Below, piece after piece: positions 15,110 to 53,200 of a stretch of 56,594 bases of DNA. Source of the DNA: Mesotaenium endlicherianum. Taxonomy: Eukaryota. The notes below the pieces were generated by a model. It searched no databases. It was not told the DNA's origin and worked only from the letters and a program-made list of their open reading frames with translations. The stretch's first letter is position 1; each line of letters begins with the position of its first letter. Location of the stretch: NCBI GenBank assembly GCA_009602735.1, contig WELA01002119.1, positions 470,965 through 527,558 of the forward strand, written 5' to 3'. A program made the position numbers and the translations under genes.

Positions 15110-15510
15110 GCATTGGCCTTCACCCTACGGGAGGCGCCCCTGGCGTTTCTTGCCCGTGCCTGACCTCCTACACCTGTAGTTGGCTAATCTTATTTGCCTG
15201 ACACTGTGCCAGTGACAGGTGTCTACTCTACTCTTCTCTGGAAGCGAGGGCCTCCCTAGAGCCAGAGGGAGGCGCCTCTGGCTCATCTCGCCCTGCCATG
15301 ACATCCTACAGCTTTAATTGACCCTATTCTTATATGCCTGACACTGTGCCAGCGGCAGGTCTCTACCTTAATGTGGGGGGGAGGAGCCAAAGACAGGCCC
15401 CTCCTCGAGCCGCCGATGGGCGCCTCACCCTTGCTTGACCTCCTAGACCTGCAATTGACGTCTAAAGAAGTATCTGGCACTGTTATAGCGACAGGTCTAC
15501 GCTCTACTTT
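15110..15510 (+). repeat. Degenerate ~140-bp tandem repeat (about 3 units); second array at ~25870-26270
   Basis: Core 'CTGACACTGTGCCAG(T/C)G(A/G)CAGGT..CTAC' and a diverged variant recur at ~15197, ~15337 and ~15475, with GGGCCTCCCTAGAGCC..GGCGCCTC-like motifs between them. Confidence 0.7.
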
Positions 15511-16123
15511 AGTGCGGGAGTGCAGGGGGTGCGGGGGGGGNNNNNNNNNNNNNNNNNNNNNNNNNNNNNNNNNNNNNNNNNNNNNNNNNNNNNNNNNNNN
15601 NNNNNNNNNNNNNNNNNNNNNNNNNNNNNNNNNNNNNNNNNNNNNNNNNNNNNNNNNNNNNNNNNNNNGGGGGGGAGGGGGGTGGTGCTGGCCCCTGGCG
15701 GTGACGCCTCCCTGGCCACTAGCTCTAGCATGCGCCGCCAGAACCATTGAGTCCTGGCTTTGGATCGATCTAGGTGGGGAAGACATTATGCGGCGGCATG
15801 CGTGGCAGGGTGGCCGGAGTGGGGAGGAGAAGAGAGAAGAGAAGGGGAGAGGAGAGGAACGGAGTGCACCCACCCAGCCCGCCCCCTGCTTGCTGCGCAG
15901 TCTACATGGCAGCAGTCCCCACAGTGTGCCGGGCATGGTCTACCTTTATGCACTCTTTCAGAATCGTGAACTTGCTAGCTGATTTTCCATCTTCTCTAGC
16001 TATCATCTTGCGGGGTCCTGTCTCTGCCTTTCTTCTCTTGCGGCCCCGGGAAGGAGCATGCTTCTTCTTCTTCTTCTTCACCTTCCAGCAGACGACGCCG
16101 GCAGGCGTGTGCAACACTGGACT

Positions 16124-31260: not shown

Positions 31261-34200
31261 ACGCACACACCAAACAGACAGACATGCATACGCACACGTG
31301 CCCATTCACATGCATGCACACACTTTCACACACTGACGTGCTTATACGCAAGGGACTCGTGTACGGACTCATGTACTCAAAGAGGGGAGGCTGTGGCGGT
31401 GGGGGTGTGGTTGTGCAGCCCTGAGTCCCCTGGGGAAGGTGCCTGTGATTGACGACAGCGGGTTCCGCCTTCAGGAGAGGTGGGTGCTCCTTCTCTTGCG
31501 CTGGACTTTGCGGCTTTGTCGTCTTCTCAGCCTTGTCAATTGGAGGGCTTTGCGAGCCTGCCGTCGTCTATCACAGAAGCTGGTGGCTGCGCAGCCATTG
31601 TACCTAGGGCGTACTATGACACTCCTCAGTCACATTCTGGTCCCTGAAAGTACGTCGGGGCGTGTGCGCGTGGGGCGGTGCACACAGCCATGCCATCTTA
31701 CGCTATCTGGCGACCACGCGCTCCTGCGCTGACACCTGGTGCGTCCTCTCTTTCCCCTCTGCTCTCCCTCCCCCTCTCTGTCTCCAGTCCCCATCCTGGC
31801 CCCTTCTCCTTGATGGGACTCAAGCCTGCCCCCCTAACTCCAGCATGCGCATGCCTCCCTCGCCATTCAATTTCCTCACTCTCTCTAGCTTGAGAGTTGG
31901 CACGTCCAAGGTGCTCTCCTCCCCCTCAGTTGGCCTCGAGTCATGCAAGGCTGGTCAAGGCTTGGTCAAGGCTTGGTCAAGGTGCCATATTTGGCGTCTA
32001 CTCCCCTGGCTCCAGGGAGCCCGAGCTTTCTGGAGCTTCTGCTCCACCCGTCTCACCCGGTGGAGTCAACGCCGGTCAACTGCACTTCCAACCATTTATT
32101 CAGCAAGGCTGGCTGCTCTGTTGACAGTGCTGGCAATGAACATCCGTGTTTCACACGTGAGCGTGCCTGAGCCTGTTGAGTTCAGTTTGGGGCCTCAAGT
32201 ACCGCCCGGATCCCTCAAGGGCTCGCAGGCCCTTCTTTTGTGAGTAAGCATGACGTGGTTGTTGGACAGCCTTGACTTCTCAGAAAGAGCATGTCGGAAA
32301 GGCCCACTGCTCGCGTTCCCACTCTTTCCTCGAGCCCTCTTTCGTTTCCGCACTCAGCAGGGGAAGGGGCGAGCTTTTTGCAAGGACGGGGACACTTGGC
32401 AGGCTCTCAGCTGCTGCTGCTGCCGGTGCCGTAAAGGCAAGGAACTGTGCCTGACCTAACCCGCCATCAGAGCCCGCTTCTGTCTGGCGCATCTACGAAA
32501 CCTGGTGTGCTTTCCACCTCCGGAACCTAACCCTAAATGCTCAAGCCCAACAACACTCAGGCCCCCAAGCCCCCAAGCCCTCAAGCCCTCAAGCTTCCAG
32601 GGCTACAGACGGGCACTCAAGCTGGGGGGCCAGCTGTCCAGGAGGAGGACCCGGAGGGGCAAGCGCAGTACTGGAGGCGCTGCTAATAGTGAGTTTGTCC
32701 TCCTCCTCCTTAGGGCCTGCAGGGGATGATTTTGTGCTTGTGGGGGCGGGGCTTGGCTGGCAGGTACCCGGCGGACAGCGCAGCGAGGGCGCGCGTGGAT
32801 GCTGTGCTCGACTGGCACCACAGCAACCTCCGCATGGGCTCTGGTGCGTCTCTCTCTGTGTGTGTGTGTATGTTTCGCTGTGTTTCTATGTGCGATTGTC
32901 TCTGTTTGTATGTGTGTCTCTGTGTGTGTGTGTATCTCTGTGCGTGTGTCGTGGTGTGTGTCTCCTTGTTTGGTTTGTGTGTGTGTGTGTGTCTGTGTGC
33001 GTGTGTCGTGGTGTGTGTCTCTAGATTTTTGCATATGTGTTTGTTTTTGTGCGTGCGTGCGCGCGTGCGTGTGCGCGTGCGTGCGCAAGCTTCTTGCTCT
33101 TTCTCTTGCCCCGTCTTCGCTGGCGGATCATTTCTGAGTCTATACAGTCACGTGAACGTATGTAAAGATCAAAGATGAAGTCCTGGAGCAGTCAACCACC
33201 AACCCTCTGCCACCCGGAACGGGCTGCTGCTTCCCGAGCTCGCCAGCTGCTGCTAATTCCCACAACTACACCCATTGCCAGCCTCCAAGCCTCGTCGCAA
33301 GCCCTGCACACTTGAATCCTGTTATACATACCTCTCTCACTTCTTTGGACACGCGCAGCTTGTTCCCGGATTTAAGATCTCAATTTTCCGTGAGGGGGAC
33401 GCGGAAAGGGCCCCTTGTTGGTCTGCAGCAGGCCTCGTGTTGCTTACGCAGTTTCTTGCGTGTGCCTGGTTTGCTGCCGGAATGGGGGGTTGGGGGGGTG
33501 GGGGGAGTTTGACGGCGGCGGCAGCGGGCCTGGTGATGAACAGGGTGCTGGCGCCAGCGCTGGGGCTGCCCCTGGACGCGCGCAAGTGCGAGGAGGCGCG
33601 CGCACTGCTCGAGCGCTCGCTCCAGACCATCGACTCCGTGTGGCTGCACCCCGACCGCCCCTTCCTGGCAGGCTTCTCGGCGCCGTCGATTGCCGATCTC
33701 AGCCTCGCGTGCGAAATCATGCAGCTTGAGGTGCGCTCTCCCCCTCCCCCCTCTCCCCCGTCAAACTCGAACACCTGAAAGCCCCTTCCCCCCCCCTCAA
33801 AAAATCTCAATCTTTTTCAACCTCCTGGCCTGTTCTTAAAACCCCCCTGTGTTGTTCCTGTCTCGACGGCTCTGATATTGTGCAACCTTCGGATATGAAC
33901 ATCAAGGTTGAACCCAGGGTGCAGGCACTACCATTAATGTCGTTCCAAGTGGACCTTGGTGTTAGTCTCATCATGCGTCTGATGTAACACGTGCTGAATG
34001 GCCAGGCTGTGTGGGGGACCTCCAGTTGTCACCCTTGCAGGCCTCTGTGCGGAGACGGGTTGGGGGGGGGGGCAGATCAATTTAATTCGAGGGACTGCCT
34101 TGAGGTTTGAGTTGCCTTGAGATTGAGCTGCGTCCTTAGGCTATCAGAGGAATCTTGGGCGTAAGAGACGAGCCTGTCGGTGGAGGGATGTTTAAAGGGA

Positions 34201-34682
34201 CCCGGAAAGGGAGAGGGAGGGACTTGAGACGCGAGGGAAAGCAGCATGCAAATGGGGAGGCTTTCAGCGAGGCGGGGATGGCTGGAAGGAACCACGCACA
34301 CAACCGGCATGGGGGTCTATAGCTGCGTGGGCATGCATGTCTAGGCATTGTCACAAATAAAGTCCAATAAGTTTGAGCAACTTAGGACAGGGGGCTAGCC
34401 ACGCATAGGATGCGCATGCAAGTGCGGGGTATGCAATAGCATTCGGCTTAATGGCGTGTGCCCTGGCTGTGGGTGCACCACAAATTTTGTGCGCAGCTGC
34501 TTGGACCTGAGGAGCGCCAGGCCCTCCTTGAGAGGCACAAGCAGGTGCAACGCTGGCTGACAGCTGTTCAGAAGCTGGCAGCGCCGCACTTTGAAGACGT
34601 GCACGATCTGCTCCGCAGAGCTGCCACACGCGCGCACCAACGCCGCAAGACTCAGCGCGTGGACCCCGCCTCTCGTCTCTGA
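30581..34682 (+). CDS. GSTT: Glutathione S-transferase theta class, 240 aa, C-terminal PTS1 (-SRL)
   Basis: Seven exons in phase: 30581-30645, 30918-30991, 31419-31479, 31688-31738, 32764-32843, 33525-33730, 34497-34682 (723 nt). Motifs: 'MSQPTRA' (catalytic Ser), 'PLGKVPVI', 'ESHAILRYL', 'LDWHHSNLR', 'SIADL'. Confidence 0.93.
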
Positions 34683-35930
34683 GCCGGTTGTCACTCCCCA
34701 AGTGCAACGGCTCGACCAGAGGATGAGCGAGTCAGCCATGTGTCAGCACTTCCCTGTCTTCTTGTTGTTGTTCAATATTGAGATCTGGGAGTATGTAATT
34801 GCTTTTCTAGAGTTGTTCATAAGGTTACTGAAGAGGGGCTAGTTGTGTGACAAGTGTTGGCCCCTCGGCCCGTTGCCGCCTGCCCTGTACATATATACAC
34901 ATATATCGTGTTGCATGCCTCGAGGGTCTTCATATTTCTACTTAATCTTACCATTGTCCAGCTCTGCAAGTCAGGAGGTGATTGCTTGTGCTGCACTGTT
35001 CCAGTGGCAATGAGGCTTTCAAACTACTCCCTTTTGCCCTCACAAAAAGTGTACAATAAGAAGCTTCAAGTGTGCAAGTATAGTAATATGCATTGTTATG
35101 GAGCAGGCACTTCATTTATACCACTTATTTGAAGTTTTCTGTCTCAGTGTTAGAGAATATGTTCATCTTACCTTGCTTTGGCGACAGGTTGTTTACATTG
35201 GCGCCCTCGTGCTTTGGGCCCATGTTACTGCCGCCCTAAATCGCCGGTGGAAATCCTTACATTTTGCGTTATGTGTGGTCAGTCTACACAGGTTATATGA
35301 TGTGTCAACGGAAATAACGTTTTGGGTTTGTCAATTGAAATTTTCACCAGACATGCTACTTCAGAATGTCATTGTAGTGTTGTGGTATCCTTGGCCCCTC
35401 GTCGATTTTATATCTTGTCGCGTATATCAAACATTACTCTCTAGGGAAATTCATTTTTTTTGCACAATGCAGACATCTACCATGTGGTTAATTTAAAATT
35501 TTGAAGGTGCAACCATTTTTAAGGGTCACCGCTCATGGAATAGCTCATATTGACTTCCCTTGTTCAATACATGCACCCCAAAGTGCCTTTTATTAGACAC
35601 TTAACTTATTTTTTAGATAAAAACCGATGGTTTTTATTAAATCTGGAACAGTAAGTTTTAATGGGTAGGCATTTGTATTCCACCCACTTTCTCAAAGTTT
35701 CAGACTGTAATATGAAATAATTTGGGAGATATTCCATTTTTTCTCATCATTGACCACAATGGTAAAAATATTTACAATTACCACTTTGTGCAGCACTCAC
35801 TACAGTTACCACCCCATACTCAATATACATTGGAATGGGCTCAAATTTGGTATGATGATAGGTGACCCTAATTTAAAGACATGGGAGGTAAAAAAAATTG
35901 AATTCCAATAAAAGAGCAGTAAGCTATGTC

Positions 35931-36342
35931 CTCCCAAACTTTGACAGGTGTCCAGCTTCGCATGCTTTAAGCTGGTGCGGCCGCAAAATGCGGCAAACAT
36001 GCTGGAACAGCAAGAATTTTAGTACATGACCTTCATAAGGTTCAAAGTGAAGTACTCACAGAATCTTAGGCTTGTTGGATATGTATTGGATGAGATATGC
36101 AATTTTTTAGACTCAGAAAAATCTGTCGATAACGAGCAAAAGTACAACCTCTAGTGTGACTTTAGCAGTCATGGCAGGTTGTCCAAAGAGTACCATAATG
36201 ATCCAATGGGACTGAAAACTTGTATGTGTACAGAAACTCTTTTACGAACAACCCAAACAAAAAAAATTGGTGTTGAATAAACAGTGAATTACTTATGACC
36301 CCTCAAAGTTGGACATGTGTCCAGCTTCGCACACTTGAAGCT
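35931..36342 (+). repeat. Pair of diverged ~43-bp direct repeats (35931-35973 and ~36300-36342)
   Basis: CAAACTTTGACAGGTGTCCAGCTTCGCATGCTTTAAGCT vs CAAAGTTGGACATGTGTCCAGCTTCGCACACTTGAAGCT. Confidence 0.7.
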
Positions 36343-37230
36343 CCTATGTCCCCAAAAGCCGGAGATTAACATTGACTACTGACCACTTTACATCTGTTGG
36401 TTTCTGAGGTGTAAATATAACTACTGTTAAAGTATCAGATATGAAGGATGATTATTGATTGAGATGTGCAATATCTCAAGTGCTTCAAAAAATGTGCGTT
36501 AGATGTGCATTTTTCAAAACAGTGTCATTATTTCACAACTTCATAGCACTATAATTTCTCACCATTGTTATTAGATACTTTCATTGTTGGTCCTACAACT
36601 CCTGGGCATATTAAAAACTCCTCAGAAGTTGGAAGAGTAAATTTGGTGACATTTAAAAAGAGTTGTGTTGTACCAAAGTAAGAAAAAAATGAACTTTTTC
36701 AAAAGTAATATGGCATTTTGTTGCAGTCTTCAACATTGCATGTACACATTGGAAGGTAAGGTTCTCAGTCTCTCTGTATTGTATTGAATGCATCCTACAC
36801 AGTACATACATAGAGATACCTATTTTGTATTTCAAAGATAGAAGGTGATTTATTGTATTTAAATGAAGATAGGAAACCTTATCTTAGATTGCCTGTATAA
36901 AATCATTCTTACCTACCAGGCTGAGTACATATACCCACTGCACTACCAAAATAGCCCTTTTCATTTGTGTAGCCTTTGCATGTGTAGCTAGATCTTCAAC
37001 TGTCCTTAGAATCCACCATCTGTCACCTCCATCTCGACCCAAAAGCAACATGATCAACTTTTTAGAATGACAATAACCAAGCCAGCACATAATCCTAATC
37101 AAATAAGAGTAGGGGGCAAATTTGCAAAGACTAAGACACTCATACCCCAGAATGTAGCGTGTGGATCTATTGACAGAGGGTCCAGATCTGAGAAGAAGGC
37201 GTAACAGTATAAAAAACTTTCACGAAGTCG

Positions 37231-39320
37231 GTGGAAGAAAATGTGCAGCTGAAAGATAAGATAGCACTCAAGTTTGTTGAGCATAGGGAAGAAGTATTGC
37301 AGCTCAAGCAAGACAATGCAGCCCACATGCAAGAGAATTTGGCTCTTAAGAAACAAATTCAATACCTCAAAGCCAAGAACTTGCCTGCAACGCGCCCCGC
37401 AGCTCCACGTCAAAGAGTAGGGAGTAGCTCTACAAGAACATGGGACAGAATGGCTGCTGATGTTCAGGATTATATGGCTGGTAGGTTTCAGTCTGATGAG
37501 GCTATGGGTATGCTTTGGCAACCTATCTTCATGGGAAAGAAATTGAAGGTTTGCTGGACTCTCTCACGGCTGACCTTGACCTTAAGCACACTATAGAAAA
37601 GGCAACGGTGCAATATATACAAAAACAATGGGACTCTAGAGTGGGCTTAGCTATTATGTACAGGCTAGGACTGTCGCAGGAGAAATACCAGCTTCTTCTA
37701 AATCTCTTCTCTAAGACTTACAACGCTGAGACAGGACTATGGAATCCCAACGTAGTATCAGATAGCTGCTCCCTAGAGATGCCCAAGTTGGCTTTAAAAA
37801 AATCTATTGCAGAAATGAAGGCTGATGTGTATGCAAAGATGGATCTTAGACAGGAAGCAAGCGGAAATAGAGTCACCCAATCATTGGAGGAGACAGTTAG
37901 ACAGAGAATCATCACTCTAGGGTTGTTGTGCCCAGAGGGCCGTGTGGTGAGAGTGCAATTCATAGGAGATGCTTTGGATTGGTATCAAAAGGTAAACCAA
38001 ACCATTATGGCATGCAAGCTATTGACATAAAACAACAGGTATATGGCAAATTCTGCATTCAACAATTGCACCATCTTGGTATTTGAAGGCGACGATGACT
38101 ACATTAGCATTGCAACTCATGCCGAGCGACTCTTAGAGGAGTTGGAGCTACTAAGGAAGAATGGTGTGATGTTTGAAGGCGTGAAGTACATCATTAAGTT
38201 CTACCAAATAGGAGATTATAAGTTCAGCAATGGGCTCTTTGGACTAAGTGGAGCTACCTCAACATACCCTTGCCTCTGGTGTTACGCCACGAGTGAAGAC
38301 ATCAAGGAGAGATGCGGGGCCGGCCAACCTCGCACCTTGGCTAGGATGCAAGCTGCAGCTCTCTGTGCGAATCATGACAGTCTTCTGATGACCTGTCCAC
38401 ACTGTGCCAAGACTTTCTCAAACTAAGTCAGACTTGCAAGGCGACACAATGAAGACAACACGAGGCAAACTTGAGAAAGAAAGCACTCATGCTCAACCAC
38501 AGTATCATAAGGTGCACAAAGGACAGCGTCATAAGAAGGCACCATTGCTAAAAATTGAACCTGCTGATTATGTCCCATGCATTCTCCATTTGCTACTGAG
38601 AGTAATTTCAACACTCTACGAGAGAACCATTCATCCTCATATTCCGCCGGGAGCAGATGCAGCTCAAATTTTTTTTGATGTACTACAGAAGGAGGTGGGA
38701 GTGACAATGTCTACGACAGCAGTTGCAGCTTACGCAAAGACAGAGATCAGAAACAGGGCCCCGAAGCCTACCTTCATTGGTCGAGAGTGTCGCCTACTCA
38801 TCGAGCAGGTGGAGGAGGTGACGAAGAACCTCATTTCTTCGCCGGATGATGCTGCACTGAAACAAGACACACAGGAAACATGGGATTGCTATCGTGAGTG
38901 CATGCGTGCCCTACTAGATCCTTTGCCGGAGACGAACTCGCAAGAAGCGAGGGAAGCAAAAGCTGCAAGGGTCCAACAACTAGCAGTAGAGTTTGAAGAG
39001 GCATATGTGAAGGCGGCAGCCGCACATCACATTACGAGGTATATGCATATCTTGAAAGCACACATACCAGCGATGATAGTAAGGCACGGAGACTTAGATC
39101 AGTTTAGTGGTGAGGGCATTGAGGCTTTACATCACTGGAGAAAACAGCAAATACAGATAGAAGGAAATGTGGAGTGGACAAGCTAGACAAGCCATACACA
39201 GTGGGTAGGCTTGCACAAAGTACAAGGCAAGAGGCATGTAGAAGAACCATAGCAGGTATGGTATCACTGTCCAAAGATGAACGACGAAAGAGGAAAAGGG
39301 TGCAACCTGCTATGCAGTAG
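37231..39320 (+). pseudogene. RAG1-core/Transib-like DDE transposase, disrupted by frameshifts (~37515, ~38420, ~39140) and an in-frame TAA (38028-38030)
   Basis: Motifs in RAG1 order: 'GLAIMYRLGLSQEKY' (DDBD-like), 'FIGDA' (D600-like, 37968), 'NSAFNNCTILVFEGDD', 'GDYKF' (D708-like, 38214), 'GLSGATSTYPCLWC' (ZnC2), 'ILHLLLR', 'FIGRECR', 'YMHILKAHIP' (ZnH2, HxxxxH), 'GDLDQFSGEGIEALH' (E962-like, 39121). A shifted frame continues KTANTDRRK..MQ to a stop at 39320. Confidence 0.85.
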
Positions 39321-39526
39321 CTAAGTATAGCAAGTCATATCTTATACAGGAGCAGGAGAAGCAGAGATGTTCAGTAGTCTAAATTAACGAGCTCATACAT
39401 ATGCATTTACATACATGCACATATACATATTCACATTGCATATTAAAATTATATTACATATGTATACGTGGCTGTTTCATATTTATTCAAAGACAATATG
39501 CAAAGGTAAATGTGGCAACATGAAAT

Positions 39527-40426
39527 TTACAAGATACAAAGAGGCTTGATTGTTACCTGTGATGCTATTTTTGCTCTCTTCCTTGTCTCGCTCTCCGTAC
39601 ATGAGGAGCAGATTTGAGGTGGTTTAAAAGAGTACTTTGCAGCAACATTAGCCCGAATTTCATTCATCAGTACCCTCGCTTGTAAGTTAGCAACTCTAGC
39701 AGCTGAGAGAAGTTGAGGTTGCCACATTTTGGATCTCTCAACTGCCCTCTTCTCATCACTCACAAGTGATCTCTTCACATCTGCTTCTAAGTCCCTGGAA
39801 GCTCTTCTTTTAGCTTCAGCCTTTTTTGCTTCAAGTACACTCCTTTCACTCCTCTCCTTTTCTCTCTGGAGATCCTCTATTTCCAATTGCAGTAGACCAT
39901 GCTTAGCTCGCAGACCTGCTTGTAACATGTAGCCCTTCACATGCACCCCATGCTCTAGCATCTGCTCTAGATAACATGCCATCCTAAGCACTATATGCCT
40001 CCTACAATCACCTATGTCATGAGTAGCATTCCATTTCAATCTGTCATAACACTGATCAGGTCCTAAAAGAACACATTCCTCTCTGTTTAAAAGAGCAAAG
40101 GAGAATTTCAGTGTAAGACTTACTTGACCAGATTCATTTCTCCTCCAATCAATACAAAATGGAGAAACAATTCCTACTATCTCACTAGACCCGCGCAATA
40201 TTTTAGCAGCACTCCACCCAATCCCTATTTCAACAGGGTGAAACTCACGCAGAGTGTTCATATTCTGCAGTGACCACCACACCCTCCTTATTGATCTTAA
40301 AATAAATGGGTCACTCCTAAAAGTATGGTGAGCAACCTCTTCACCCAACTTTTCAATCACTTCCTGGAATAGCTCTTGTGGCACATTGACATCCTGTATT
40401 CTGACAATTCTCTGCGGGACCGCGTC
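39527..40426 (-). pseudogene. Convergent partner ORF of unknown function (~300 aa when rejoined), interrupted by the LTR retrotransposon
   Basis: Open for 900 nt up to the LTR boundary. Removing the LTR element and one TSD restores ..KR-M(47089-47087)-DAVPQRIVRIQDVNVPQELF.. The C-terminal half is E/K/R-rich (coiled-coil-like) with a CxxC near the end. Confidence 0.7.
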
Positions 40427-40925
40427 TGTAGTGAAACAGATAGATAAAGTACTTAGTAAAATAGAATACTTTATTCAAGACAAGGATCTTTGAACACAAG
40501 TGGTAGCTTCTTGAAAGAGAGATGGCTTCTTGAAAGTTAATATATTTCTGGATTTTGGCAAGTACAAGAGTGATTCTCAAATGTCTTTCTATGTTCTAGC
40601 TCTTGTTTATATACTTGCTACATAAGTAATTTCTAGGAAGGTGTATGTTGATGTGTTGGCACCCAACACATCCCAAAACTTGCCACCTCTTTCTAGAATA
40701 ATGTACACATGTCCTTTTGACCTAAAAATGGCACATTTGACTTTTGCCACATGGAGTTCTTCTAGGTCTTTCCTCTAACTTCGAAAATGCCTTGGAAGGT
40801 TCAAAGGACATGAACCAAGTTACTAGAGTACCTATTCACACTTGACTCCACACAATACTACTCCAAATATATTTGAAAACATTAAAATATATGCAAACTA
40901 ATATATAATAACTCAAATCACTACA
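40427..40925 (-). repeat. 3' LTR (499 bp)
   Basis: TGTAGTG...CACTACA; differs from the 5' LTR by about 12 substitutions, a 13-nt indel and two 1-nt indels (hand count). Confidence 0.96.
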
Positions 40926-40935
40926 TCACCCCCCC
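40926..40935 (-). promoter_or_regulatory. Polypurine tract (GGGGGGGTGA on minus strand)
   Basis: Abuts the 3' LTR. Confidence 0.85.
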
Positions 40936-40961
40936 GATAGAAAAAGCGACGTCTCGGCGCG

Positions 40962-41088
40962 TCAAGTCAGGTCTTACACATGTGGAGCAAACTAGTCAAC
41001 AGTTTCAAGTCAGATGCCACACATGTGAAGAGGACTAGTCAAAGGCGCCAAGTCAGGTGCTACACATGTAAGGTAGACTAGGCAAGGT
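40962..41088. repeat. Three degenerate ~44-bp tandem repeats in the retrotransposon 3' UTR
   Basis: CAAGTCAG..ACACATGT..ACTAG.CAA repeated three times. Confidence 0.75.
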
Positions 41089-41691
41089 CGTAGGTGATGT
41101 GACCTTATTGGCTAGCCTACTCCTTAATGATAAAGAAAATTGTACAAGTTGGCGCAGAATCTGCCACGAATTCAAAAATTCATAGCGTCCACAGAACTGC
41201 TCCAAATCTAAACATTTGAGTGCCAGACGGACCGCGTTGGAGAACTCTACCGAGTCACCAAATTTGAGAGCATTCTAATTTCTGAAGTGTCGTTGAGAGC
41301 TGAGAGAGTAGGCACTCCAAATCTGTGCAGAAACTTCTGAAAATCATAAGTCCTTCTATACTTCTCCAAATTTTGCAAAGTAAGTCTCCAAATGGGCGCT
41401 GTAAGATGTTCTACCAAAGTCTTGAGTTTCACAGCATTCCAAGTTCAGGGGAGGGCACAATGTCAGAAGGCATATTCTGCCCTAACAATGCCAGCAGCCT
41501 GACCCCCTTCTACTTAGAGCATCATATCTCTCTCACCAGTGCTCCAAATTGAGCAAACTTGGACTCTAAATGACCGGCTACTCATGGACTACAGCCAGGT
41601 AAATTTTCAGAATTTATTATGCAGAGACCTATCACCAGTACCAGTTTTTGTTTTCTGTCCAGAAACTGCAAGAAGAGAAAAGTGTCTAATG

Positions 41692-44600
41692 TCAATTTTT
41701 CCTCTTTGTGGTTCTTGCAGGCTGCCTCCAAGGGGTCTTCTGCTGCTTCTTGATGGTGGCAGGCTGCCTCCCTGAAGTCTTCGGGCTTCTAGTAGAGAGA
41801 CTTGGGGCTGGTCCAAGATGGGGGTTGGCGGCATGGAAGCGCTTCAACTTTCTCTGAACTTTGTCAAGGTAGTGCGCCGCCACCCAACTATTCTCCGAAT
41901 CTGGATATCCTTTCCACTTGATCAAGTATTGCTGCTGTCTCCTGAAATTTCTCATAGCCACTATGTCTTCCACTTCGTACTCCAAATGATCATCCACTAT
42001 TGTTGGGGCTGGTGGGGTTGTCACACGTCCTGGGAACTTGTTGTCGGGTTGCACATATGGCTTGAAGAGGGAAGCGTGGAATACGGGGTCGATGTGCATA
42101 GTCTGGGGAAGTTCTAGCTTGAAAGCAACGGGGTTGACTTGCTGGATAATCTTGAAGGGTCCCAAATACTTGGGAGAGAACTTGCTGCCGGCAGGCCTGT
42201 TGTTCAGGGAAATGTTCTTGGATGATAGTAACACGTTGTCACCCACTCTGTACGTAATTTCTCTTCTGGATCTGTTCGCCACTCTTGCTTGAGCATCTTG
42301 CGCGTGTTGTAGAGCTTTCTTCGCTGCTGTAAGGGCTGCTTCTAATGTCTCCATAAAATCTGTGGCTGCAGGTACTTCATCATGGCCAGCCGTGAAGCTC
42401 AGTGGCGTGGTCGGATGGAAGCCATAGTTGAGGAAGAATGGGGACTCTTGGGTAGAGGCCTGCGTAGTGTTGTTGTAGGCAAACTCGAGGGGGGTCAAGT
42501 ACATGTCCCAGTCTTGCTCGAGGGTAGACACGTAGGCCTTCAGAGAGGTCTTTAGGGTACGATTCAGACGCTCGGTTTGCCCATTTGATTGTGGGTGGTA
42601 GGCGGTAGACATATCGAGCGATGTACCCAAGTTCTTGAAGAGATTTTTCCAGAAATGGCTTGTGAATCTTGGATCTCTATCTGACACAATTCTTGATGGT
42701 AGTCCATGGAGTCGGAAGATGTTGTCAAAGATGAGTCTTGCAAGTTGTGGTGCTGTAGCCTTAGTCGTCGTGGGAATAAAATGAGCCATCTTGGTAAGTC
42801 TGTCCACCGCCGTGAGTATTGCATTATGGCCTCGAGGTGTCACGGGCAAGTCCACGATAAGGTCCATTGAGATGTCCGTCCATTGTCTTTCGGGGATTGG
42901 TAGTGGTTGGAGGAGTCCTCCCGCCTTTTGCGATGATGGCTTGATTCTTTGGCATGTGTCACAGCTCCTGCAGTACTCCTTGACTTGCTTAGACATGCCT
43001 GGCCAACAATAAGTCCTGGCTAGAACGCTTGTGGTCTTTAGGATTCCAAAGTGTCCTCCAAGAGGGTTGTCATGTGCTTCTCGTAGAAGCAAGAGCCGGA
43101 GGTCTAAGTCATTAGGAACACATCTCTGGCCCGTATCTTGCCTCACCCAATAATTGCCTTCTTGCTTCTTGCATGGGTCCAAGGCTGCTTCTCCGTTCTT
43201 GTAGTAAGGGTCTCTTTCATAGGCGGCTGAAAATCGAGCTTCCAGATCTGTCTTCAGGGATGTCATCACGGCGTTTAATTGCAGTCTTGAGAGGGGCTCA
43301 GCCGGGTTTGTCTTGCCGGGCTGGTACTGAATCGTGATGTTGTATTGTTGCAAGTATCCGCTCCATCTTGCTTGTCTCCTTGAAAGATACGGCTGCGTCT
43401 GGAGGTGCTTCAACGCCTCGTGGTCCGTGGTGACCAGTACCTTGCGTCCTTCAACGTAGCAGCGCCAAACCTTCAAGGCATGTACAATCGCCAATGCCTC
43501 TCGCTCCGTGGTTGTATAATTTTGCTCGGCCGGATTCAGCTTTCTTGACTTGTAGGCAATGGGCTGCAGTCCCTTGCCGTGGTCTTGAAGCAGGATTGCT
43601 CCTATTGCATAGGAAGATGCATCGGTGATGACGTGGAAGGGCCAATCTGGGTTTGGACTTGGGAGTGTGAGCACCGAGGATGTGGTCAATCTTCGCTTTG
43701 ACTCTTGAAATGCCTCTTCCTCTTTCTTGGTCCATGTATAAAGCCTGTCCTTCTTGAGTAGATCTGTCAGGGGGGCTGCTATGTGCGAGAAGCTTTGGAT
43801 GAATCTCCTGTACCAATTGGCAATTCCGAAGAATGACTGGAGTTCTTTCTTGGCCGTGGGGTTGGCCATTCCTCCACCACCGTGGTCTTCTTGGGGACCG
43901 TCTTGATGCCATCAGCAATCACGTGGAGACCTAGGAACTCCACTTCTTGTTTGGCAAACTCGCACTTTGACTCCTTCGCAAATAGCTTGTTTTGCTTCAA
44001 TACTTCCAGGACTTCTTTCAAGTGTCTCGCATGCTCTTCAAGGGTCTTGCTGTAGATAAGGATGTCATCGATGAATACCACCACAAATCTGTCCAACATG
44101 GGCTGAAATATGGTGTTCATCATAGTCATGAAAGTTGCTGGCGCGTTGGTGAGTCCAAATGGCAGGACCATGAACTCAAAATGTCCATATCTTGTCCTGA
44201 ATGCCGTCTTCTCTATGTCCGGTTCTGCGATGCGAATCTGGTGGTAGCCGCTCCGTAAGTCAATCTTCGTGAAGTACTTGGCTCCAACCAGCCGGTCCAT
44301 GAGCTCATCCATGCGCGGCAGCGGGTATCGATTCTTGATGGTGATCTTGTTGAGGGCGCGATAGTCCACACACATCCTCAAGGTACCATCTTTCTTCTTG
44401 ACAAATAGCACCGGGGCTCCAAATGGCGACTTGCTAGGTCGAATGAAGCCATGCTCCAGTAGCTCCTTGATTTGCTTGTTGACTTCGTCTAGCTCCGTGT
44501 ATGACATTTTGAACGTAGGCCGAGAGATGGGCTTGCTTCCGGGCTCCAACTCTATCTTGTGGTCTACGAATCTCTTTGGGGGTAAGCCCTTGGGCAATTT

Positions 44601-45356
44601 CGGAGAGAATACTTTTTTGTAGTCCTCTAAGACTTCTCGTATCTCCTTGGGAACGGGGCTGCCTTCTTGACTCTCGATGTCTTTCTTGATGTCTTTTGGC
44701 GTGATCAAGGCCAAAAGAAGCTCGTGTCCCTTCCTCACAAGTCTCTTGAGTTGGAGGGCGGACAATAGTATCTCGTGTGCCGGCTTCTGGATGTCTTGGG
44801 TCTGGATATTCTGGATTGCGCGCAAAATACAGATTCTTGAAGTGATGTCATTCTTGATCTTGATAGTACCGGTCCTCCAATCAACTTGGGGGTTGTGCTT
44901 GGTCAACCAAGGCGTCCCTAGGATGACGTCGTACTTGCCCAATTGCATGGGGGAGAACACTACTCTATCCTTGAAGGACTTGATAGAGAGTGCCAAGGGG
45001 TACGTCTTCTTGGAAGGGGTAGTATAGGAGAATCCGTCGGGCATCATAATCTCCTCGTCGTGGTCAAGAGTTCGCATAGTAATACCGTGCTTGGTGGCAA
45101 AATCTGCAGCAATGAAGTTGCCTTGAGCTCCGCTATCCACCAAGATGTGGACCTTCTCTCCTCCAAGGTTACCTCTCAAACTCATTGGGGCTGGGACGTC
45201 GTCTCCAACGGGGGTCTCCACCTCACTTGGCGTGTTGCCTTCTCGTGAAGTGGGTCTTGGGGTGGTAGGCTCCTGGCCTACCGGCGCTGTCCGTTTTTTG
45301 ACAACTTTTTGGGGCATGAAAGTGCACGATGGCCCTTTTCCTTGCAATAGAAGCAT
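41692..45356 (-). pseudogene. pol: pol polyprotein: aspartic protease, RT, RNase H, integrase, chromodomain; one frameshift at ~43860
   Basis: 'LVDSGA', '[10 protein letters not shown]', 'FIDDILIYS', 'TDASS', HHCC 'HDNPLGGH..CDTC', 'SMDLI/SDRD/TERLN', 'YEVEDIV..YLIKWKGYPDSENSW'. ORFs 43779-45356 and 41692-43869 join at [15 protein letters not shown]. Confidence 0.95.
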
Positions 45357-46558
45357 AGTCCAGCCGTCATGAGAGCTTCTTTTTCAGCCGGGGAGAGTCT
45401 TGCTTTCACTCCTTGCTGGTTTCTTGCATCATAAGTGTCATTGGAGGGTCTTCCACTCTTCCGAGCAGCCGCGGGGTCCCTTTTAATAGCTCCGATTTCC
45501 ATGGGTGTGGGTCCAGATTCGGATGTGGAAGGGGCTGCGTACACCCGCGTCGTCGGTACCCGTGAAGATGAAGGCACGGAGTGCTTGAAATCCAAGGTAT
45601 CCACCTTTTGGGCCACTTCAATGATCTTTGAGAAGTCCGTCAAGTCGCGTAACTCCACTTCCTTTGCCACCTTGGGTTTGAGGCCAAAGATGTAACGGTC
45701 AATCTTCTCCTCGAGAGACATGTTGGGGATCTCAAGAGTGAGGGCGTGAAATCTGGATGTATACTCTTGAACGGACGTCGTTTGCTTGAGATGGTGGAGC
45801 TTTCCTCGGGCAATCTTCTCCGCATTGATGGGCATGAATTGCTTCTTGAGGGCCTCACGAAAATCTGCCCATCTTGCATATGATGGTGGGGGCTCTTGGC
45901 CGAGCATGGGGTGCGCCATAGCTTGATATATAGCCGCTTGATAGTTACGCCACCATGATGTTGCTGCTCCTCTAAGTAAGGTAACGGCAAAGGGAACGTA
46001 GTCCTCCTCGGGTACTTCAAGGAACGCGAGGTACGTCTCCACTTGGTAGAGCCATAAATTCAGGTTGGCACCTTTCCCGGGGTTGAAAGTGTCGGGTTTG
46101 CCGGGCTTGATGAGTTTCCTTGCTCTCGTTGGCTCTTGTGGAGGCGCTTGAGCCGGGGCTGGATTTTGAGCATTGCTCGCAATAGGGGCAACCATGGCAG
46201 CCATAGCTTCTCTTGACGCTTGCACGGTTGCTTCATAGGTGGCCAGGCCCACTTGGTTGTGGACGGTCATTAGGAAGGCTGCCCACTAGTTTGCGAGAAC
46301 TCCTTGTGGTGGGGTTAACTTTGCTATAGCGGCTGCCACGGGATTTGACGGTGCTCCTCCTTGCGGTGCTTCTTGTTGTTGCAGATTTCCTTGAGTAGGC
46401 TCTCCCATCGACGCTGGAGGAGGGTGTGCTCCTCCTTGTGGTGCTTCTTGTTGTTGCAGATTTTCTTGAGTGGGCTCTCCCATCGGCGCTGGAGGAGGGT
46501 GTCTTGGAGAGGAAGGGCTTCCTTCGAAAGCTTGCTGTTGGTCTTGAGGATCGGCCAT
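45278..46558 (-). pseudogene. gag: gag with Zn knuckle; in-frame TAG at 46288-46286
   Basis: ORFs 46286-46558 and 45278-46270 are in the same frame; retrotrans_gag-like 'LLRGAATSWW', 'LKQTTSVQEY'; CCHC '[14 protein letters not shown]'. Confidence 0.9.
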
Positions 46559-46582
46559 CTTCTTGTGCTACCAAAGTGCCTA

Positions 46583-46594
46583 GCTCCGATACCA
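46583..46594 (-). promoter_or_regulatory. Primer binding site TGGTATCGGAGC (initiator tRNA-Met type)
   Basis: 1 nt inside the 5' LTR boundary; one mismatch to the canonical TGGTATCAGAGC. Confidence 0.9.
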
Positions 46595-46595
46595 C

Positions 46596-47081
46596 TGTAG
46601 TGAAACAGATAGATAAAGTACTTAGTAAAATAGAATACTTTATTCAAGACAAGGATTTTTGAACACAAGTGGTAGCTTCTTAAAAGAGAGACGGCTTCTT
46701 GAAAGTTAATATATTTCTGGATTTTGGCAAGTACAAGAGTGATTCTCGAATGTCTTTCTATGTTCTAGCTCTTGTTTATATACTTGCTACATGAGTAATT
46801 TCTAGGAAAGTTTATGTTGATGTGTTGGCACCCAACACATCCCAAAACTTGCCACCTCTTTCTAGAATAATGTACACATGTCCTTTTGACCTTAAAATGG
46901 GCACATTTGACTTTTGCTACATGGAGTTCTTCTAGCTTCGAAATTGCCTTGGAAGGTTCAAAGGACATGAACCAAGTTACTAGAGTACCTATTTACACTT
47001 GACTCCACACAACACTACTCCAAATATATTTGAAAACATTAAATATATGCAAACTAATATATAATAACTCAAATCACTACA
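46596..47081 (-). repeat. 5' LTR (486 bp)
   Basis: Direct repeat of 40427-40925, followed by TSD GCGTC. Confidence 0.96.
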
Positions 47082-50000
47082 GCGTCCATTCTCTTGACAA
47101 TCGCTTTTGGTAGTTCTTAAGCCATACATAGGGGTTGACCTCCACGGCAGTTGTGAACAACTAACCACAAGCACAACTTCTAGCCTCCAAAAATCGCTGA
47201 ACACCACAGTTGCTGCAAAACTTAGGTACTCTAGCCATGAGAGAAGTCAAACTATACTTTGGCACCACTCTAAATCCTAACTGTCGGGTGAATAAGAGTC
47301 TATTATGCTTTTTACCTAATTTTCTGGCCCCAAATATTTTTTCTGAATTTGTTTGACTTCATGGTAGAGAATTAGTCACATATGAAGAGTCTATCTCACA
47401 CACTACGTACCCTTCAGTGCTAAGAAGTTGATTGTGCTGGCTACTGAAAATTATCCACTATTTTGTTCGGCACAAGAGGGAAGAACTCTAAGAGAAAGCT
47501 TCAAAAACGAAACGTTTAGCATATAATTGAGAAACACTAAAGTTTGTACGTGAAGGAGATAGAAAGAAACGCCATGGAACCCACTCTCACCCAAGATTCT
47601 CCCTTAACCGGCCTTCTTCTACCTAGTAGTACAGAATGTGTGGCAAAGTTTATTTATGTGCAGACTATGTAGACTCGCACAAAAGAATGCTCTGTTAGCA
47701 CGTAAAAAGTATGAGGCCTGCTTAGAACACAGTAGTCGTAATTAAAGTTTAATGCACGCGAGTGCAAGGACTTCTTAAGGCGTCGGGAAAGTGGCGCGGA
47801 ATTTAAAGAATTGTGACGATAAGTACGTTCGACGCGAAAGTTTGGTGTTCGTAATTTGGCCCGCCTGGGATGCATGTAAAAGTATAATACTAATGCCCTT
47901 TAAATGGCTATAGCTTAATGATGTAACATGCCCCCACATTTTTGTCTTAAGTTCTTGCATCTGACTTGCTTATCCTCTTGAGATACGCGGTGTTGTATGT
48001 ACCATATATGATTGGAGCAGCAATAAGCATTGCACCTCTTAACAGCATATACTTGATCACGACTCTATTGGCTACATCAACAAAGCAGATAAATACAAAG
48101 AAGTATAAGTCTTTCATATCGTGATTGTTTAGAAAGCACCCAAGCATAAAAAGTCGAGTTTTCTCAGTCCTTCAATTAGACGTCCCCCATACATGCAAAA
48201 AACAATATCTTATATATTCCAGGAAGCAATGGGGACTTTAACTCAATAAGGTGTACACGACACTTCAATTTCTGTCAAGGCTATATCTCCTGTAGCTACC
48301 AAACTCCGCTCAAAGACTCTCTCATGTTTGCTGTACAATTGGGTGCATATAGCAAGTGCCCATGGACGCCAACGCAGATAGCTGTTTGTCGATGGAACAT
48401 TCAGACGTATTTATCTGTACGTTACAAAAGCCAGAGCTGCGTGTAACTTCCACGTACATTTGTATAGTTTGTATGCCATTTCACTGCTTTACGTCGATGA
48501 ATGCATTGTCTCGACTGTGTCGACTCAATACAGAGCACTTCTCAAATGAAGCTAGATATGGATAGATTAACATATTACTTCCTCTGTCTGCATAATTATG
48601 CATCGATCTCCACCAATTTCTTGGGGATCTGATTGCAATTAATGTTCGATCATCTCTATTAAATATTCTAAGTTATTTACTTAAAATTGACAATTTGACT
48701 GGAGTCTGAAAAGTGCATAAAATCTGCATGTATACATGTGACCTCAAAGCTTCTCTAACTAGTATAATCCCTAAGCATGATTTTTCATTTTTCAAAGCAA
48801 CAAATGCAATAGAGTAGACAGAAGTGAACTAGAGAAGTCTTTTCTATATAAGAGAGCTACATCAGATAGAAAATTCATTGTAGTGCAAATACACATATAT
48901 AGTGCTGGTAGAGCCCACCCACCCACCCTTCAAGTAGGAGGCAAAGGAAGTACTATGCTAGCAGCACTCTCAGAGGGTAGCAAAAACAAGAGAAGATGTC
49001 TCCAATAGTCTTAATTGAGCCAAAATAGACGCTTTCTCCAAAGAGTATACAGGCAAATTACATTAAGTTGACCTAGGATTAAAGTAGGTCCAGAGGTCAC
49101 TAGAAGTCTAGTGTCCCAAAAACCTTACGTGCGCACTCCGTGCACTTGTAGATTATGACCTTATTCAAACCTGCATCATCATTCATCAGATGATATGAAA
49201 ATGCAAAATTTATGCACTATCAAGCTAAAAGTGTTCTGGGGTCCAGGGCAGTCTAGGGTCCGTCATTAACTTGCGTGTCGGGACAGCCCTTAGCTCCGCG
49301 TTCTGAGAGCGACTTGGTCACAGTCGCTCACTTGTCACTTCAAGAAATCTTGATAGCGAAGTGCCGAAGCAGCCAACTCGATAGCGACTGCCGGACTCAA
49401 CGAACCTCACGATGTCATGAACCGATAGGAAGCAAAACGCAGTATGCAGCAGGATGTGTCTCGATCGGTCTCGATCGTCTCAATGCAGCACTAAACGTGT
49501 GATGATAGAGTTTTACTAAAGGCTCATAGGATCGATGGGTGCCACATATGGCCCCAAGCCAGCACATGCATTTCGTTCGAGCCTTCTTTCCAAAGAGGTA
49601 CAATGTTGTACAATTGTTGGTACAAGTCGCAAGAGCCCACGGCTTGAAGTGGGCGTGAAGTGAAGCACAAAGAGCGCTGGCAAACGACGGACCACCATGG
49701 CCACCAAGTACGTGACCAAATATGACCAACGATCGGAGGAACTCCCTCTCGTTCCCCCCTATACTCCGTTACTCATCAACTACCATCATCTTCATCGATC
49801 TCAATCGCGAGGGACTTACGGCAGCACCTGCAGCAACGTTTCTTTATCTTTCACTCGTCTCGTCGTTCCGACAGTGAAAGTTTTTGTTGGCTCTTATTTC
49901 TCGACTGTCCCTGGTTTACAGTATTTTCCTTTTGCAGGTACTTTGTTCGTGGTATTGAGCGTGTGCTGTATATGGGGATGGTGTGATGTAGATTAGAAGC

Positions 50001-50206
50001 CACTCAATAACTTTGTTCACGAAGTGTAGGCTGTTAGTTTCTAGTACTGCATCCAGCCTCTGACGAGATAAGTTGCACTACTGGAGTCAGTCAAGATCTG
50101 AAGTATTTACTACTGTACAATCGTGGAGAAGGCATGGTGGAGGCACACGCTCGGTCGTGTATGCGGGGCGGCCTTCGCCTGTGCCCTCAGGCGACCCGCC
50201 GCTGCA

Positions 50207-53200
50207 ATGGCCACTAACTGGCGGGACATACTGGATGAGAAAGATCAACAGATTCTTGCTCTACGTGAAGGTTAGTGTGTATCTCATACTATTTTTTTGG
50301 GGGGGGGTTTGCCAAGTCTAGGAGTCTCAGGTTACAAACGTGTGCTTCAGGCACTGTGACTCTAGTGTAAGGGGAGGGGCTCGTCAGCCTGATTTTGCTT
50401 GATATAGATTACTGTAAGGTCAAACTTAATATAGAGAAGCTTTGGCATTTGATACTCAGGACGTGATTGACTTTTTTCTGCTTCGTTGTCTCCAGATTTG
50501 AAGCAGGCACTTTCTACATTACCACCTGCACTCCAGGCTGTCCCATCAGCCATTCTCGTTGCAAATATTGCACCTCTTTTGAAGAACTGCGCCGAGCCAT
50601 CTGCATCTCCAGCTGAGTTAAAGTAAGCGGCTGCATCTGTGCTTGTATGTTGTGTAACTTTTCTTTTTACCCACTGGCGCTGGATGTCCTGTCTGCTTGA
50701 GGTCAGAAGAAAGCGGTGGGTAGTGGATGGGAGTCTTGCATATTTGTGTGTAAAAGCTGCATTGTGTTTGAGCTTTAGTTTCAGTGAATCGAGTGGACTA
50801 CCACTAAATTGATTTGCAGCCATTTCTTGTACTGATATCTTCCCCCTATTTTGGGGGTTCTTGGGGTCAGTTTCTCAGGTGCTGAAGTAAGAGGCAGGGA
50901 TGGGTTTATGACCCTGCTGGATAGAGCCATAGCTGGGGTCGAGAACGGCTTAAACACTGGTGCATTAGGTATTATTTACTGTCAATTTTGCCCGCATGAG
51001 CGTCACTGAGGATTCTGTAGCCTTGCTGACAGCTCTATACAGAAGTGATAATTGCTCCCTTTCTTTTCCCTCGTCCTGTTTTTTGTTGTTCTTTTCCTCG
51101 TACGTCATTGTTCTTTTCTGGCTTTACTCTTAGTTTTGTATGATAGGCCTGTAATCGGACGCACCATCCAGAAAAGCGGCTGGCGACATTTTTTTGTGGC
51201 AATGTCAAAGACATGACTGGTGTACACTTTCGTTTACTGAAGTAGATGTAGAAGCACCGAACATCAGGTTGCATATTTATGGCTGCCTTGCTTTTGAGTC
51301 ACCCGTTTCACACAGGTCTGCAGTCTAAGCACGGGTGTTGGGAAGAAACTCTGCTGATGTGTGCAGCTGGTGTAATGCCTGCAGAGAAGCACTCGAAGGT
51401 CGCTCCGGCGCTGCGCCTTGTGCGCGCGGAGATGATGGATGCCAACGAGCCAAACTTCCTGGAGGAAGAAGGTATGAAGCTGCAGCTTCTAGAGCAGCTG
51501 TCGCCCGCTCAGCAGTCCAGCTGTGCACAGGACAATTTTCTGTTGCTGCCTGCCTGCTGGCCGTGTAAGGCTAGGGTGCTTGTAGCGATGGCAGGGTTGC
51601 CAGTTAGCTGGAAGATACAGTGAAATCTGGTTGCATGCCTCCTGCTTTGTACGATGCAACAGATGGAAAGTATCAAACATGCGAGCTGGCTGCCGTCAGC
51701 ATTATACGCGTAACATTGTATCTAGTGTTTCGCTGTAGGCACATAATAGTGTGAGCTTGCATCGCTGATGCTGCCTTGTGATGTGGCATGAATGAATGTG
51801 GTGATGCAGATATGCACATCTTCGACGAAGCGCCTCTCTCCGACAAGCTCTCTCTGGTACGTGACACGCCTCTCGCCTCTCGCCGTGTGACACGTGACCC
51901 GGGCAAGGTTGCATGGTCTTTGTGTTTGGACAATAAGCTCATGTGTACGGAAGGGTGAAGGAGATGAAGAGAGGGAAGAGGGTGGTGTTGGAAGGCTTCC
52001 GGGTTACCAGGTACATGTGGAAGGGGACACTGAGGGTCGTGGTGCCTGAGGCAAGTGCACATGTGTCACTTGCCGCTCTCTTTCTCTGTATCTTCTGAAG
52101 GCTAGAGAAGGCTGGTGGCTGGTGCTGACAGGGAGCCGTACGGGGCCTCTGGTGGGTGTGCAGGTGGTGTGCAACAACTGCCAGAAGCCGGTCAAGGAGA
52201 GCCAGTACCCGGCTCATCTAGGTACCATCCTCATGCAGGATGTATGCATACGATTGCACTCATGCATGTGTCGCTAGGCATGAACATTGATGGGTACACA
52301 CATGCGCATGAGTTTATGCATCTGTTTTGTATGTGTGTTATATTCTTCTTTGCTTTTTCCAAAAATATGTGCACGTACTCGTACGCACAAACACTGATCT
52401 GCACGGATGAAAGATATGTGTATGCGTGTGGTCCCTGGCAACAAGCCACTGGTTACAGGGGTATCCGGTTTCAAAAGGTCAATCTTGCTACGGACGCTCA
52501 TCATATTAACAGCACGCCACTCTAGTCCCCTCCCGCAGCTTCTCTGCCAATGGCAGACGGGTGTCGCTCTCCCCGTGCTGCTGATTGGAACTATGTGCTG
52601 CGTTCCCTAACTCACCTAAAAAATACGTAAAAAAACCGATACGCAGTACGACAGGAGCTGCTGGCAAGCCTGCCCCAAGTGTGCCTCCTGTTGCCGGGGG
52701 ACATACTACCGCTTCTGGGTGCCGTTCGCACTGACACATGCGTGCTGTGGCTGCCTGGTTTTCCGCTAACAGGATAAGGCTTGGGGTTTTTGTTGTGTTC
52801 TTTTGCCTGCAATCAGAGAGGTGCCAGGCCCTGGCGGCTGCCGCTGCTGCGACTGCTGCAGCCTCCGCAGAGGGAGAGCAGCCAGAGGCCGCCGGTGCCG
52901 GCGCCACCATGAAGCCCCCCCGAAAGGGCCGCAGGAAGAAGGACTGTATCCTCCTTTCTCTTTCTCTCTCCGAAGACTGCACCCTCCAGACCTGTCGGCC
53001 ACTTTCCCTTTGCGGCCCTTCTGTCGGACCCTGTGGTCTTGTCATTTTGAGGCCTGCAGTCGTCTTGGCAAAAAATTGAGCAGTGCAAGTGGTCTGACTT
53101 GCCTGTCAGCATTTTGACTTTGCGATGCTTCCAGAAACCTGCTGAGGCAAGGGCTCCTCCCTCCTTCCCTTTTTTTGCTGAAAGAAGGGAGCCTAGGCAA

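Follow-up and report, generated by a model that had tools for sequence, protein, structure and literature searches.

Introduction

Current models hold that a one-gene Transib transposon captured RAG2 once, and that the tail-to-tail gene pair is the signature of that event. Tao and colleagues reportedly divided Transib into subgroups I and II in 2022. According to the accessible part of PMC7204232, Transib carries one gene, and the broad Transib superfamily is given in the accessible part of PMC4411706 as Transib, TransibSU, Chapaev and Chapaev3. RAG, BbRAGL and HzTransib act in cut-and-paste transposition by nick and hairpin, as described in the portion available of PMC10629977. An algal RAG-like element, AanRAGL of Aureococcus, is already known, and plants encode Transib-like proteins (PMC9435367). 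Here we analyze a 56,594-bp stretch of the Mesotaenium endlicherianum genome (contig WELA01002119.1, positions 470,965 to 527,558; hereafter the window, whose coordinates are used throughout), in which the original prediction, made from the sequence alone, had placed a RAG1-like transposon with a convergent second gene unlike RAG2. The locus very probably represents a two-gene transposon family, encoding a transposase predicted to have a RAG1/Transib fold together with a convergent partner gene. The element is neither RAGL, since it lacks RAG2L, CTT* and a 5-bp duplication, nor a strict Transib, since it has two genes. We regard it as probably a new kind of element within the Transib/RAG superfamily.

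A decayed transposase with a predicted RAG1/Transib fold

The decayed DDE transposase gene occupies 37067..39320 on the plus strand, as judged from open reading frame (ORF) pieces, motifs and homologs, where both the start (37067) and a break at about 37200 were placed by eye. Its pieces lie at 37213-37596, 37500-38030, 38031-38426, 38392-39186 and 39123-39320, and are disrupted by frameshifts near 37510, 38400-38430 and 39140 and by a stop at 38028. Inspection of these pieces located every residue that the original prediction had named, in the order it had given: D 37968, D 38214, CxxC 38271/38280, LH 38587, G-R 38782, H-x4-H 39046/39061 and E 39121. Other copies, which were read together with the element borders from public sequencing runs under the same species label, including the DNA run X1, differ from the window at the 38028 stop (38028-38031; 5 X1 contigs), and 3 contigs apiece differ from it at the 37510 and 39140 breaks. 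Within the frame 37500-38426, 18 of 34 listed differences fall at third codon positions (p 0.014), the 34 being the best-supported subset of more than 1,200.

When the N-terminal half of the transposase, its stop read as X, was searched against 1.84 billion representatives, 261 relatives scored E <= 0.001. The best among the 150 of these that were listed is P0002, a protein of 762 amino acids (aa) with 31% identity, which also matches the C-terminal half of the window transposase at 7e-33. Organism names stood on 8 of 28 clusters checked, which were picked from the top matches and from those bearing the zinc finger described below, and all are prasinophyte green algae (a Pterosperma transcript and Cymbomonas). 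Among the intact relatives are a Pterosperma transcript of 762 aa and a Cymbomonas protein of 674 aa, and Cymbomonas has 14 locus tags for transposase homologs. A single window transposase piece found no relative in the PDB, and a word-index search with the N-terminal half among longer proteins found nothing.

Profiles built from these relatives reach RAG1 by sequence alone. A 62-sequence transposase profile matched zebrafish RAG1 at 5e-14 and BbRAG1L at 2e-12, and BbRAG1L was the best match (3e-10) of a 36-sequence profile of the clade carrying the insert. RAG1 is among the profile matches at E <= 10 and HzTransib is not, neither among all 31 for the 62-sequence profile nor among the 60 listed of 61 for the 36-sequence profile. 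Structural comparison used a predicted model of P0002 with a predicted local distance difference test (pLDDT) score of 85.7. Foldseek matched this model to RAG1 (1.6e-16), HzTransib (4e-10), BbRAG1L (1.5e-9) and the P element (3.7e-4). Alignment with VIA gave RAG1 a Z of 24.6 (root-mean-square deviation, rmsd, 3.8; 453 aligned), BbRAG1L 21.9 (rmsd 3.9; 462 aligned), HzTransib 21.3 (rmsd 4.1; 412 aligned) and the P element 11.3 (rmsd 6.1; 355 aligned). Profiles and model together bear out the earlier proposal that the transposase has a RAG1/Transib fold, as a prediction. The N-terminal 200 residues of P0002 contain no Cys and are modelled as helix.

The ZnC2 region of the transposase carries a lineage-specific zinc-finger insertion of the form H-CxxC-H (38355..38520, plus strand), recognized from alignments and from profile matches to C2H2 fingers, whose first half it resembles. 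All four extra ligands (H/C/C/H) between CxxC and LH are present in 32 of 32 insert-clade rows and in 0 of 12 others, counting clade rows present in alignment A1 and scoring by alignment columns; the window copy itself has Leu in the first His column. The spacing from CxxC to LH is 87-155 residues in the insert clade and 52-74 in the others, apart from one of 151. The extra finger marks the lineage. Longer ZnC2 inserts, with 143-155 residues between CxxC and LH, occur in P0027, P0028 and P0026, so the ZnC2 surface varies widely. The CTT* motif CxxCxxxGHxxxxC was found in none of 12 long homologs, some of them C-terminally truncated, and was not seen in the C-terminal piece from the window.

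A rapid tree of 61 transposase rows splits 40, the insert clade with the window and the metagenomic contig L001 described below, from the remaining 21 at a Shimodaira-Hasegawa-like approximate likelihood ratio test (SH-aLRT) value of 97. Its rows are the 59 of 177 profile matches that survived filtering for coverage and the exclusion of 9 near-duplicates, plus the window and L001, and include no labelled RAG1, Transib or Chapaev. A short basic motif, G-[KRT]-F-[AS], was noted by eye near the transposase N-terminus in the window (~37100-37130), in L001 (230-260) and in P0002; it is possibly a DNA-binding hook.

A convergent partner gene interrupted by a retrotransposon

Facing the transposase is a partner gene on the minus strand, whose 3' part of 299 codons spans 39527..40426 and is defined by its ORF and by a homolog on L001; the 315-codon minus-strand frame ends at 39527. 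The tail-to-tail arrangement with stops about 200 bp apart, described in the original prediction, is confirmed, with 207 bp between the stops at 39320 and 39527. A 5' part lies at 47087..47238 on the minus strand, with an ATG at 47238 and a zinc-ribbon-like CxxC..CxC, and is interrupted by a single stop and, ahead of the main ORF, by a single frame break. Seven X1 contigs have another base at that stop.

The two parts are separated by a Ty3/gypsy chromodomain long terminal repeat (LTR) retrotransposon at 40427..47081 (minus strand), a 6.66-kb insertion that interrupts the partner gene. It is delimited by LTRs at 40427-40925 and 46596-47081 and by a GCGTC duplication (40422-40426 and 47082-47086), is near-intact, and encodes gag, protease, reverse transcriptase, RNase H, integrase and chromodomain. 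The site is free of the LTR element in 5 X1 contigs. The two LTRs differ by 12 mismatches per 485 aligned bases (~2.5% divergence), so the insertion is more recent than the divergence of the DNA element's copies, which lie ~10-20% apart within the species.

The partner 3' part comprises an alpha/beta region, a long coiled coil and a C-terminal CxxC, with an isoelectric point of 9.3, and its predicted model contains one helix of ~100 residues and 5 strands. The original prediction had seen no kelch repeats or PHD finger in it, and this held throughout: the 299 residues contain no GG dipeptide, the partner profiles matched neither RAG2 nor any kelch chain in the PDB at E <= 10, and Pfam assigned the partner and its homologs to no family of the kelch or PHD type. 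By its sequence, then, the partner is not RAG2. The searches likewise returned no TET/JBP dioxygenase family in Pfam at E <= 10 for the partner or its homologs, and nothing significant for the partner family in Pfam, the PDB, PHROGs or NCBIfam (best E for PHROGs/NCBIfam 0.019). A word-index protein search with the partner alone found no relative, a fold search with its low-confidence model returned coiled coils only (best Z 7.2), and profile comparison of partner and transposase found no homology.

Both genes in other copies and on a metagenome contig

Other copies in the same species hold both genes tail-to-tail. X1 record 7 (1,282 nt) and a 3,521-nt contig from run X8 each combine the transposase 3' end with the partner at ~83-87% identity. 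The X8 contig links transposase, uninterrupted partner, right end and a different flank. Both genes lie within shared inverted ends.

The pairing also recurs on one contig from outside the species. A metagenome scan with the transposase motif matched 129 stretches, of which 2 were confirmed (L001 and L002). L001, a contig of 3,099 nt, encodes a transposase 33% and 35% identical to the window halves and, just past its stop, a convergent ORF. This ORF matches the window partner at 24 of 93 positions, with a score of 77 against 29.9 +/- 4.4 for shuffled sequences, a score that 0 of 2000 shuffles reach. When it was searched against the 1,119 six-frame ORFs of the window, the partner came first (BLAST 7.9e-5, phmmer 3.6e-4). 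A two-sequence partner profile then led to P0183 and to Cymbomonas CYMTET_20700 (P0184), which are 58% and 61% identical to the L001 partner protein and open with paired CxxC motifs, as does the 5' piece of the window partner. The L001 transposase is closest to Cymbomonas proteins (41%), and Cymbomonas encodes both a partner homolog and transposase homologs. The Atlas gave no usable match for P0184. Scans of viral contigs (5 of 5) and of prokaryote genomes (2 of 2) yielded no confirmed locus.

Element borders and terminal sequences

The whole DNA transposon copy extends over 35568..47878 (no strand assigned), a length of 12,311 bp including the nested LTR element and 5,651 bp without it. It is thus wider than the span of 37231..47238 first proposed, 6.66 kb of which is the LTR element. 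The left terminal inverted repeat, TACATGCACCCC (35568..35579, plus strand), is identical at 11 of 12 positions to the right end, TACATGCATCCC in minus-strand reading (47867..47878), which was placed by junction contigs and the end match. These 12-bp ends were derived from read junctions, and general inverted-repeat scans missed them. With at most one mismatch, the right-end 12-mer has a single match within 33500-37200, at 35568, and any match arose in 2 of 300 shuffles; a further match lies at 27359 on the opposite strand. Summed contig depth, which is not copy number, in X1, a run that may be the window's own source, is ~65 left of 35570 and 210-1,110 over 35588-40285, with a step near 35570-35680. 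On the right side it is 340-630 up to 47969 and then 58. Junction contigs exit the window behind 47877 in X1 (5), X7 (1) and X8 (1), the flanks of the 5 X1 right-end contigs being mixed (agreement 0.5). Depth steps, junction contigs and the inverted-end match together therefore define the element as 35568-47878. The AT-rich island of the original prediction is real at the left border, where GC falls from 0.52 in the flank to 0.416/0.414 inside, and is lost at the right, where the flank has a GC of 0.415.

The last base is G in the consensus of the 5 X1 right-end contigs and in the X7 and X8 contigs. This suggests that the ends of other copies are of the CAC type. The window copy is also readable as TA[CATG...CATG]TA, with TA at both ends; the 5 X1 junction contigs diverge at the A, so the TA reading fits the window copy and not these. 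AA are the only bases shared by the flanks TTGTTCAA and AAAGTATA. The CMCT pattern of CA..TG termini with a 2-5 bp duplication could be read here in two ways, either as CATG flanked by TA or as a CAC-type terminus flanked by AA or by a degenerate 3-mer (CAA/AAA).

A subterminal pair of ~84-bp direct repeats (35890-35973 and 36259-36342, no strand assigned), 75% alike with a self-BLAST E of 8e-7, likely provides protein-binding sites. A 9-bp inverted repeat, ATAAAAACC-gat-GGTTTTTAT, was observed at 35617-35637, 49 bp inside the left end; we take it to be one base off the nonamer of a recombination signal sequence, a resemblance that may be chance. At the right end no counterpart of this inverted repeat was seen.

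Other features of the window

Spliced, expressed host genes with GT..AG joints lie on both sides of the element (33524-34921 and 49769-52221, plus strand), and the insertion is therefore intergenic. Further spliced host gene pieces at 7627-8277 and 10028-11407 (plus strand) encode a serine-hydrolase domain of the beta-lactamase family (PF00144). A duplication of ~14700-17300 versus 25470-28020, ~10.7 kb apart and 76-93% alike in N-free blocks, is probably a tandem host gene pair. A 31-bp stretch at 48899-48929 is common to other transcripts in X7, X8 and X17, possibly as a small repeat.

The LTR of the nested element is very abundant in X1, with a depth of hundreds of thousands versus 65, and is present in RNA reads. 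The primer site of the nested element reads TGGTATCGGAGC, which we take to be of initiator-Met-tRNA type.

Discussion

We consider it probable that the locus is a decayed copy of a repeated two-gene transposon with a RAG1/Transib-fold transposase and a convergent gene other than RAG2, the latter likely an accessory factor. The window copy was broken by the later LTR insertion, by stops and by frameshifts. With MURB of MuDR as the functional model, it is reasonably likely that the partner assists transposition in some way. In the mechanism that we propose, modelled on RAG and Transib, a transposase dimer would bind the CAC-type ends. Judging from the fold, cleavage would proceed by nick and hairpin with the D/D/E residues, followed by insertion elsewhere. 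The basic zinc-ribbon/coiled-coil partner may bind DNA or the transposase and promote assembly of the complex or integration. Docking would most likely involve the ZnC2 segment with its extra finger, a site proposed because ZnC2 of RAG1 projects toward and contacts RAG2 (accessible parts of PMC13056857 and PMC10579426). A bound subunit at ZnC2 is nonetheless the speculative end of this range, and we regard it as rather unlikely. Complex prediction for the L001 transposase halves with the L001 partner, run without alignments and with an uncertain partner fold, scored 0.00 and is evidence neither way.

Several observations weigh against the reading of a RAG1-fold transposon with an accessory gene. 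The window copy, one old copy, shows no 5-bp target site duplication, and both of its ends begin TAC, not CAC. The CxxC and H-x3-4-H motifs, which the original prediction had taken as hallmarks of the RAG1 core, are common to the whole CMCT clade and not to RAG1 alone (PMC12730594). The partner model is poor (pLDDT 49.7). Outside the species, linkage of the gene pair comes from one contig, L001, as L002 (1,362 nt) is too short. Direct comparison of the window partner with P0183 is not significant (31 of 1000 shuffles), that with P0184 is weak (6 and 0 of 1000 shuffles; E 2.8 by BLAST), and the window partner, though ranked first by a profile built from the three outside partners, reaches an E of only 0.13. 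None of the 14 transposase tags seen has a number next to that of CYMTET_20700. The 3 partner homologs found, versus 261 transposase relatives, indicate that many relatives may be without a partner. In the stranded polyA run X14, whose strand convention was set by a spliced host gene nearby, most reads covering the transposase are antisense to it, and the reads derive from other copies.

One alternative, possible but not probable in our judgment, is that the second gene is carried along and has no part in cutting or joining. It would instead affect the host, through anti-silencing or the targeting of chromatin as with VANDAL accessory proteins, or its convergent transcript would repress the transposase. 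Few raw RNA reads cover the element, and these derive from diverged copies. The low-depth minus-strand reads of X14 that span partner and transposase would suit antisense repression, but the X8 contig extends 1.15 kb past the element end, so host read-through may explain such reads. Precedents exist in CMCT elements that carry unrelated cargo, such as TET/JBP (PMC12730594), and in HzTransib, which is active without a second gene in the available portion of PMC10629977. Retention of the gene pair across transposases only 33-35% identical weighs against this alternative.

It is likewise possible, if doubtful, that the element belongs to another CMCT lineage (Chapaev-, ESTA- or Lanisha-like) no nearer to RAG1, the matches to RAG1 reflecting which structures are solved. 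The clade-wide motifs are compatible with this, as are a DUF1280 match in 10 of 62 aligned homologs, a mean identity to RAG1 of just 12-15% in the structural alignments, and the fact that no Chapaev, ESTA or CACTA chain was among the fold matches to compete. The TA[CATG...CATG]TA reading resembles ESTA, and the window copy lacks a 5-bp duplication, but at the 5 X1 junctions the contigs do not run on into TA. Intact homologs also lack the Cys-rich Chapa/RING N-terminus, the sequence profile by itself reaches RAG1 and BbRAG1L, and P0161 lies near RAG1-domain clusters by Atlas features (score 0.91-0.92), all of which weigh against this alternative.

It is very improbable, and largely refuted, that the partner ORF lies here by coincidence or belongs to a nested element of its own: although the locus already has one nested element and the Cymbomonas partner homolog was not shown adjacent to a transposase, a single pair of ends encloses both genes, other copies have both, and L001 repeats pairing and orientation. 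A decayed RAG2 in a true RAGL/ProtoRAG transposon, which the tail-to-tail layout and RAG1-like core might suggest, is close to negligible given a partner with no GG in 299 residues, a ~100-residue helix, 5 predicted strands only, and profile matches that include neither a RAG2/kelch chain in the PDB at E <= 10 nor a kelch/PHD family in Pfam.

Comparison with described systems places the preferred reading of a RAG1-fold transposon with an accessory gene among several partial relatives. Like RAGL/ProtoRAG, the element has a RAG1-type catalytic core (Z 21.9-24.6 for the P0002 model, and the family profiles), a long ZnC2 segment and two genes between short inverted ends, convergent as in ProtoRAG. 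In contrast to RAGL/ProtoRAG, its second gene lacks a kelch propeller or PHD, the window copy has no 5-bp duplication, a coiled-coil N-terminus takes the place of C1-C3/RING, and ZnC2 bears the extra H-CxxC-H finger. The genes of AanRAGL, unlike those here, are in tandem (PMC9435367), and none of six algal names occurs in one supplementary file of that paper. The element is like Transib in fold (HzTransib Z 21.3), D/D/E, CxxC, H-x4-H, low copy number and short ends that are likely CAC-type in other copies. It differs from strict Transib by the second gene within its ends and by the lack of a 5-bp duplication in the window copy. The CMCT lineages (ESTA, Chapaev/Chapaev3, Plavaka, Lanisha, EnSpm) share C(2)C, H(3-4)H and perhaps CA..TG-type ends, and some also carry extra genes (PMC12730594). 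They are set apart, as judged from descriptions, by the absence here of a TET/JBP gene and a Chapa domain. A fixed TA duplication as in ESTA appears to be at odds with other copies of the element. Unlike Chapaev/Chapaev3, the P0002 N-terminus has no Cys, is helical in the model and has no Chapa zinc finger. MuDR (MURA-MURB) offers a parallel in combining a transposase with an unrelated accessory protein, its mudrA and mudrB being, we presume, convergent. It differs in its transposase superfamily, and the partner described here has no significant Pfam family. In the available portion of PMC12973397, MURB binds MURA and loss of MURB inhibits transposition. As the original prediction supposed, the two-gene family seems undescribed: no published account was found among the records listed, with most subscription journals and Repbase outside the coverage.

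A RAG1-fold lineage with another convergent partner and a remodelled ZnC2 indicates that a partner can be captured more than once. With it come a protein family so far without a name and a lineage of transposons that algal annotations lack. It also offers a natural way to test the contribution of a second subunit to a RAG1-fold enzyme, and since intact relatives exist in Pterosperma and Cymbomonas, the question is testable at the bench. More speculatively, and in our view unlikely as matters stand, a green-algal RAG1-fold lineage may have independently recruited a zinc-ribbon/coiled-coil second subunit, from a new protein family, that docks on the new ZnC2 finger. If true, RAG-like transposases with two subunits encoded tail-to-tail would have arisen here separately.

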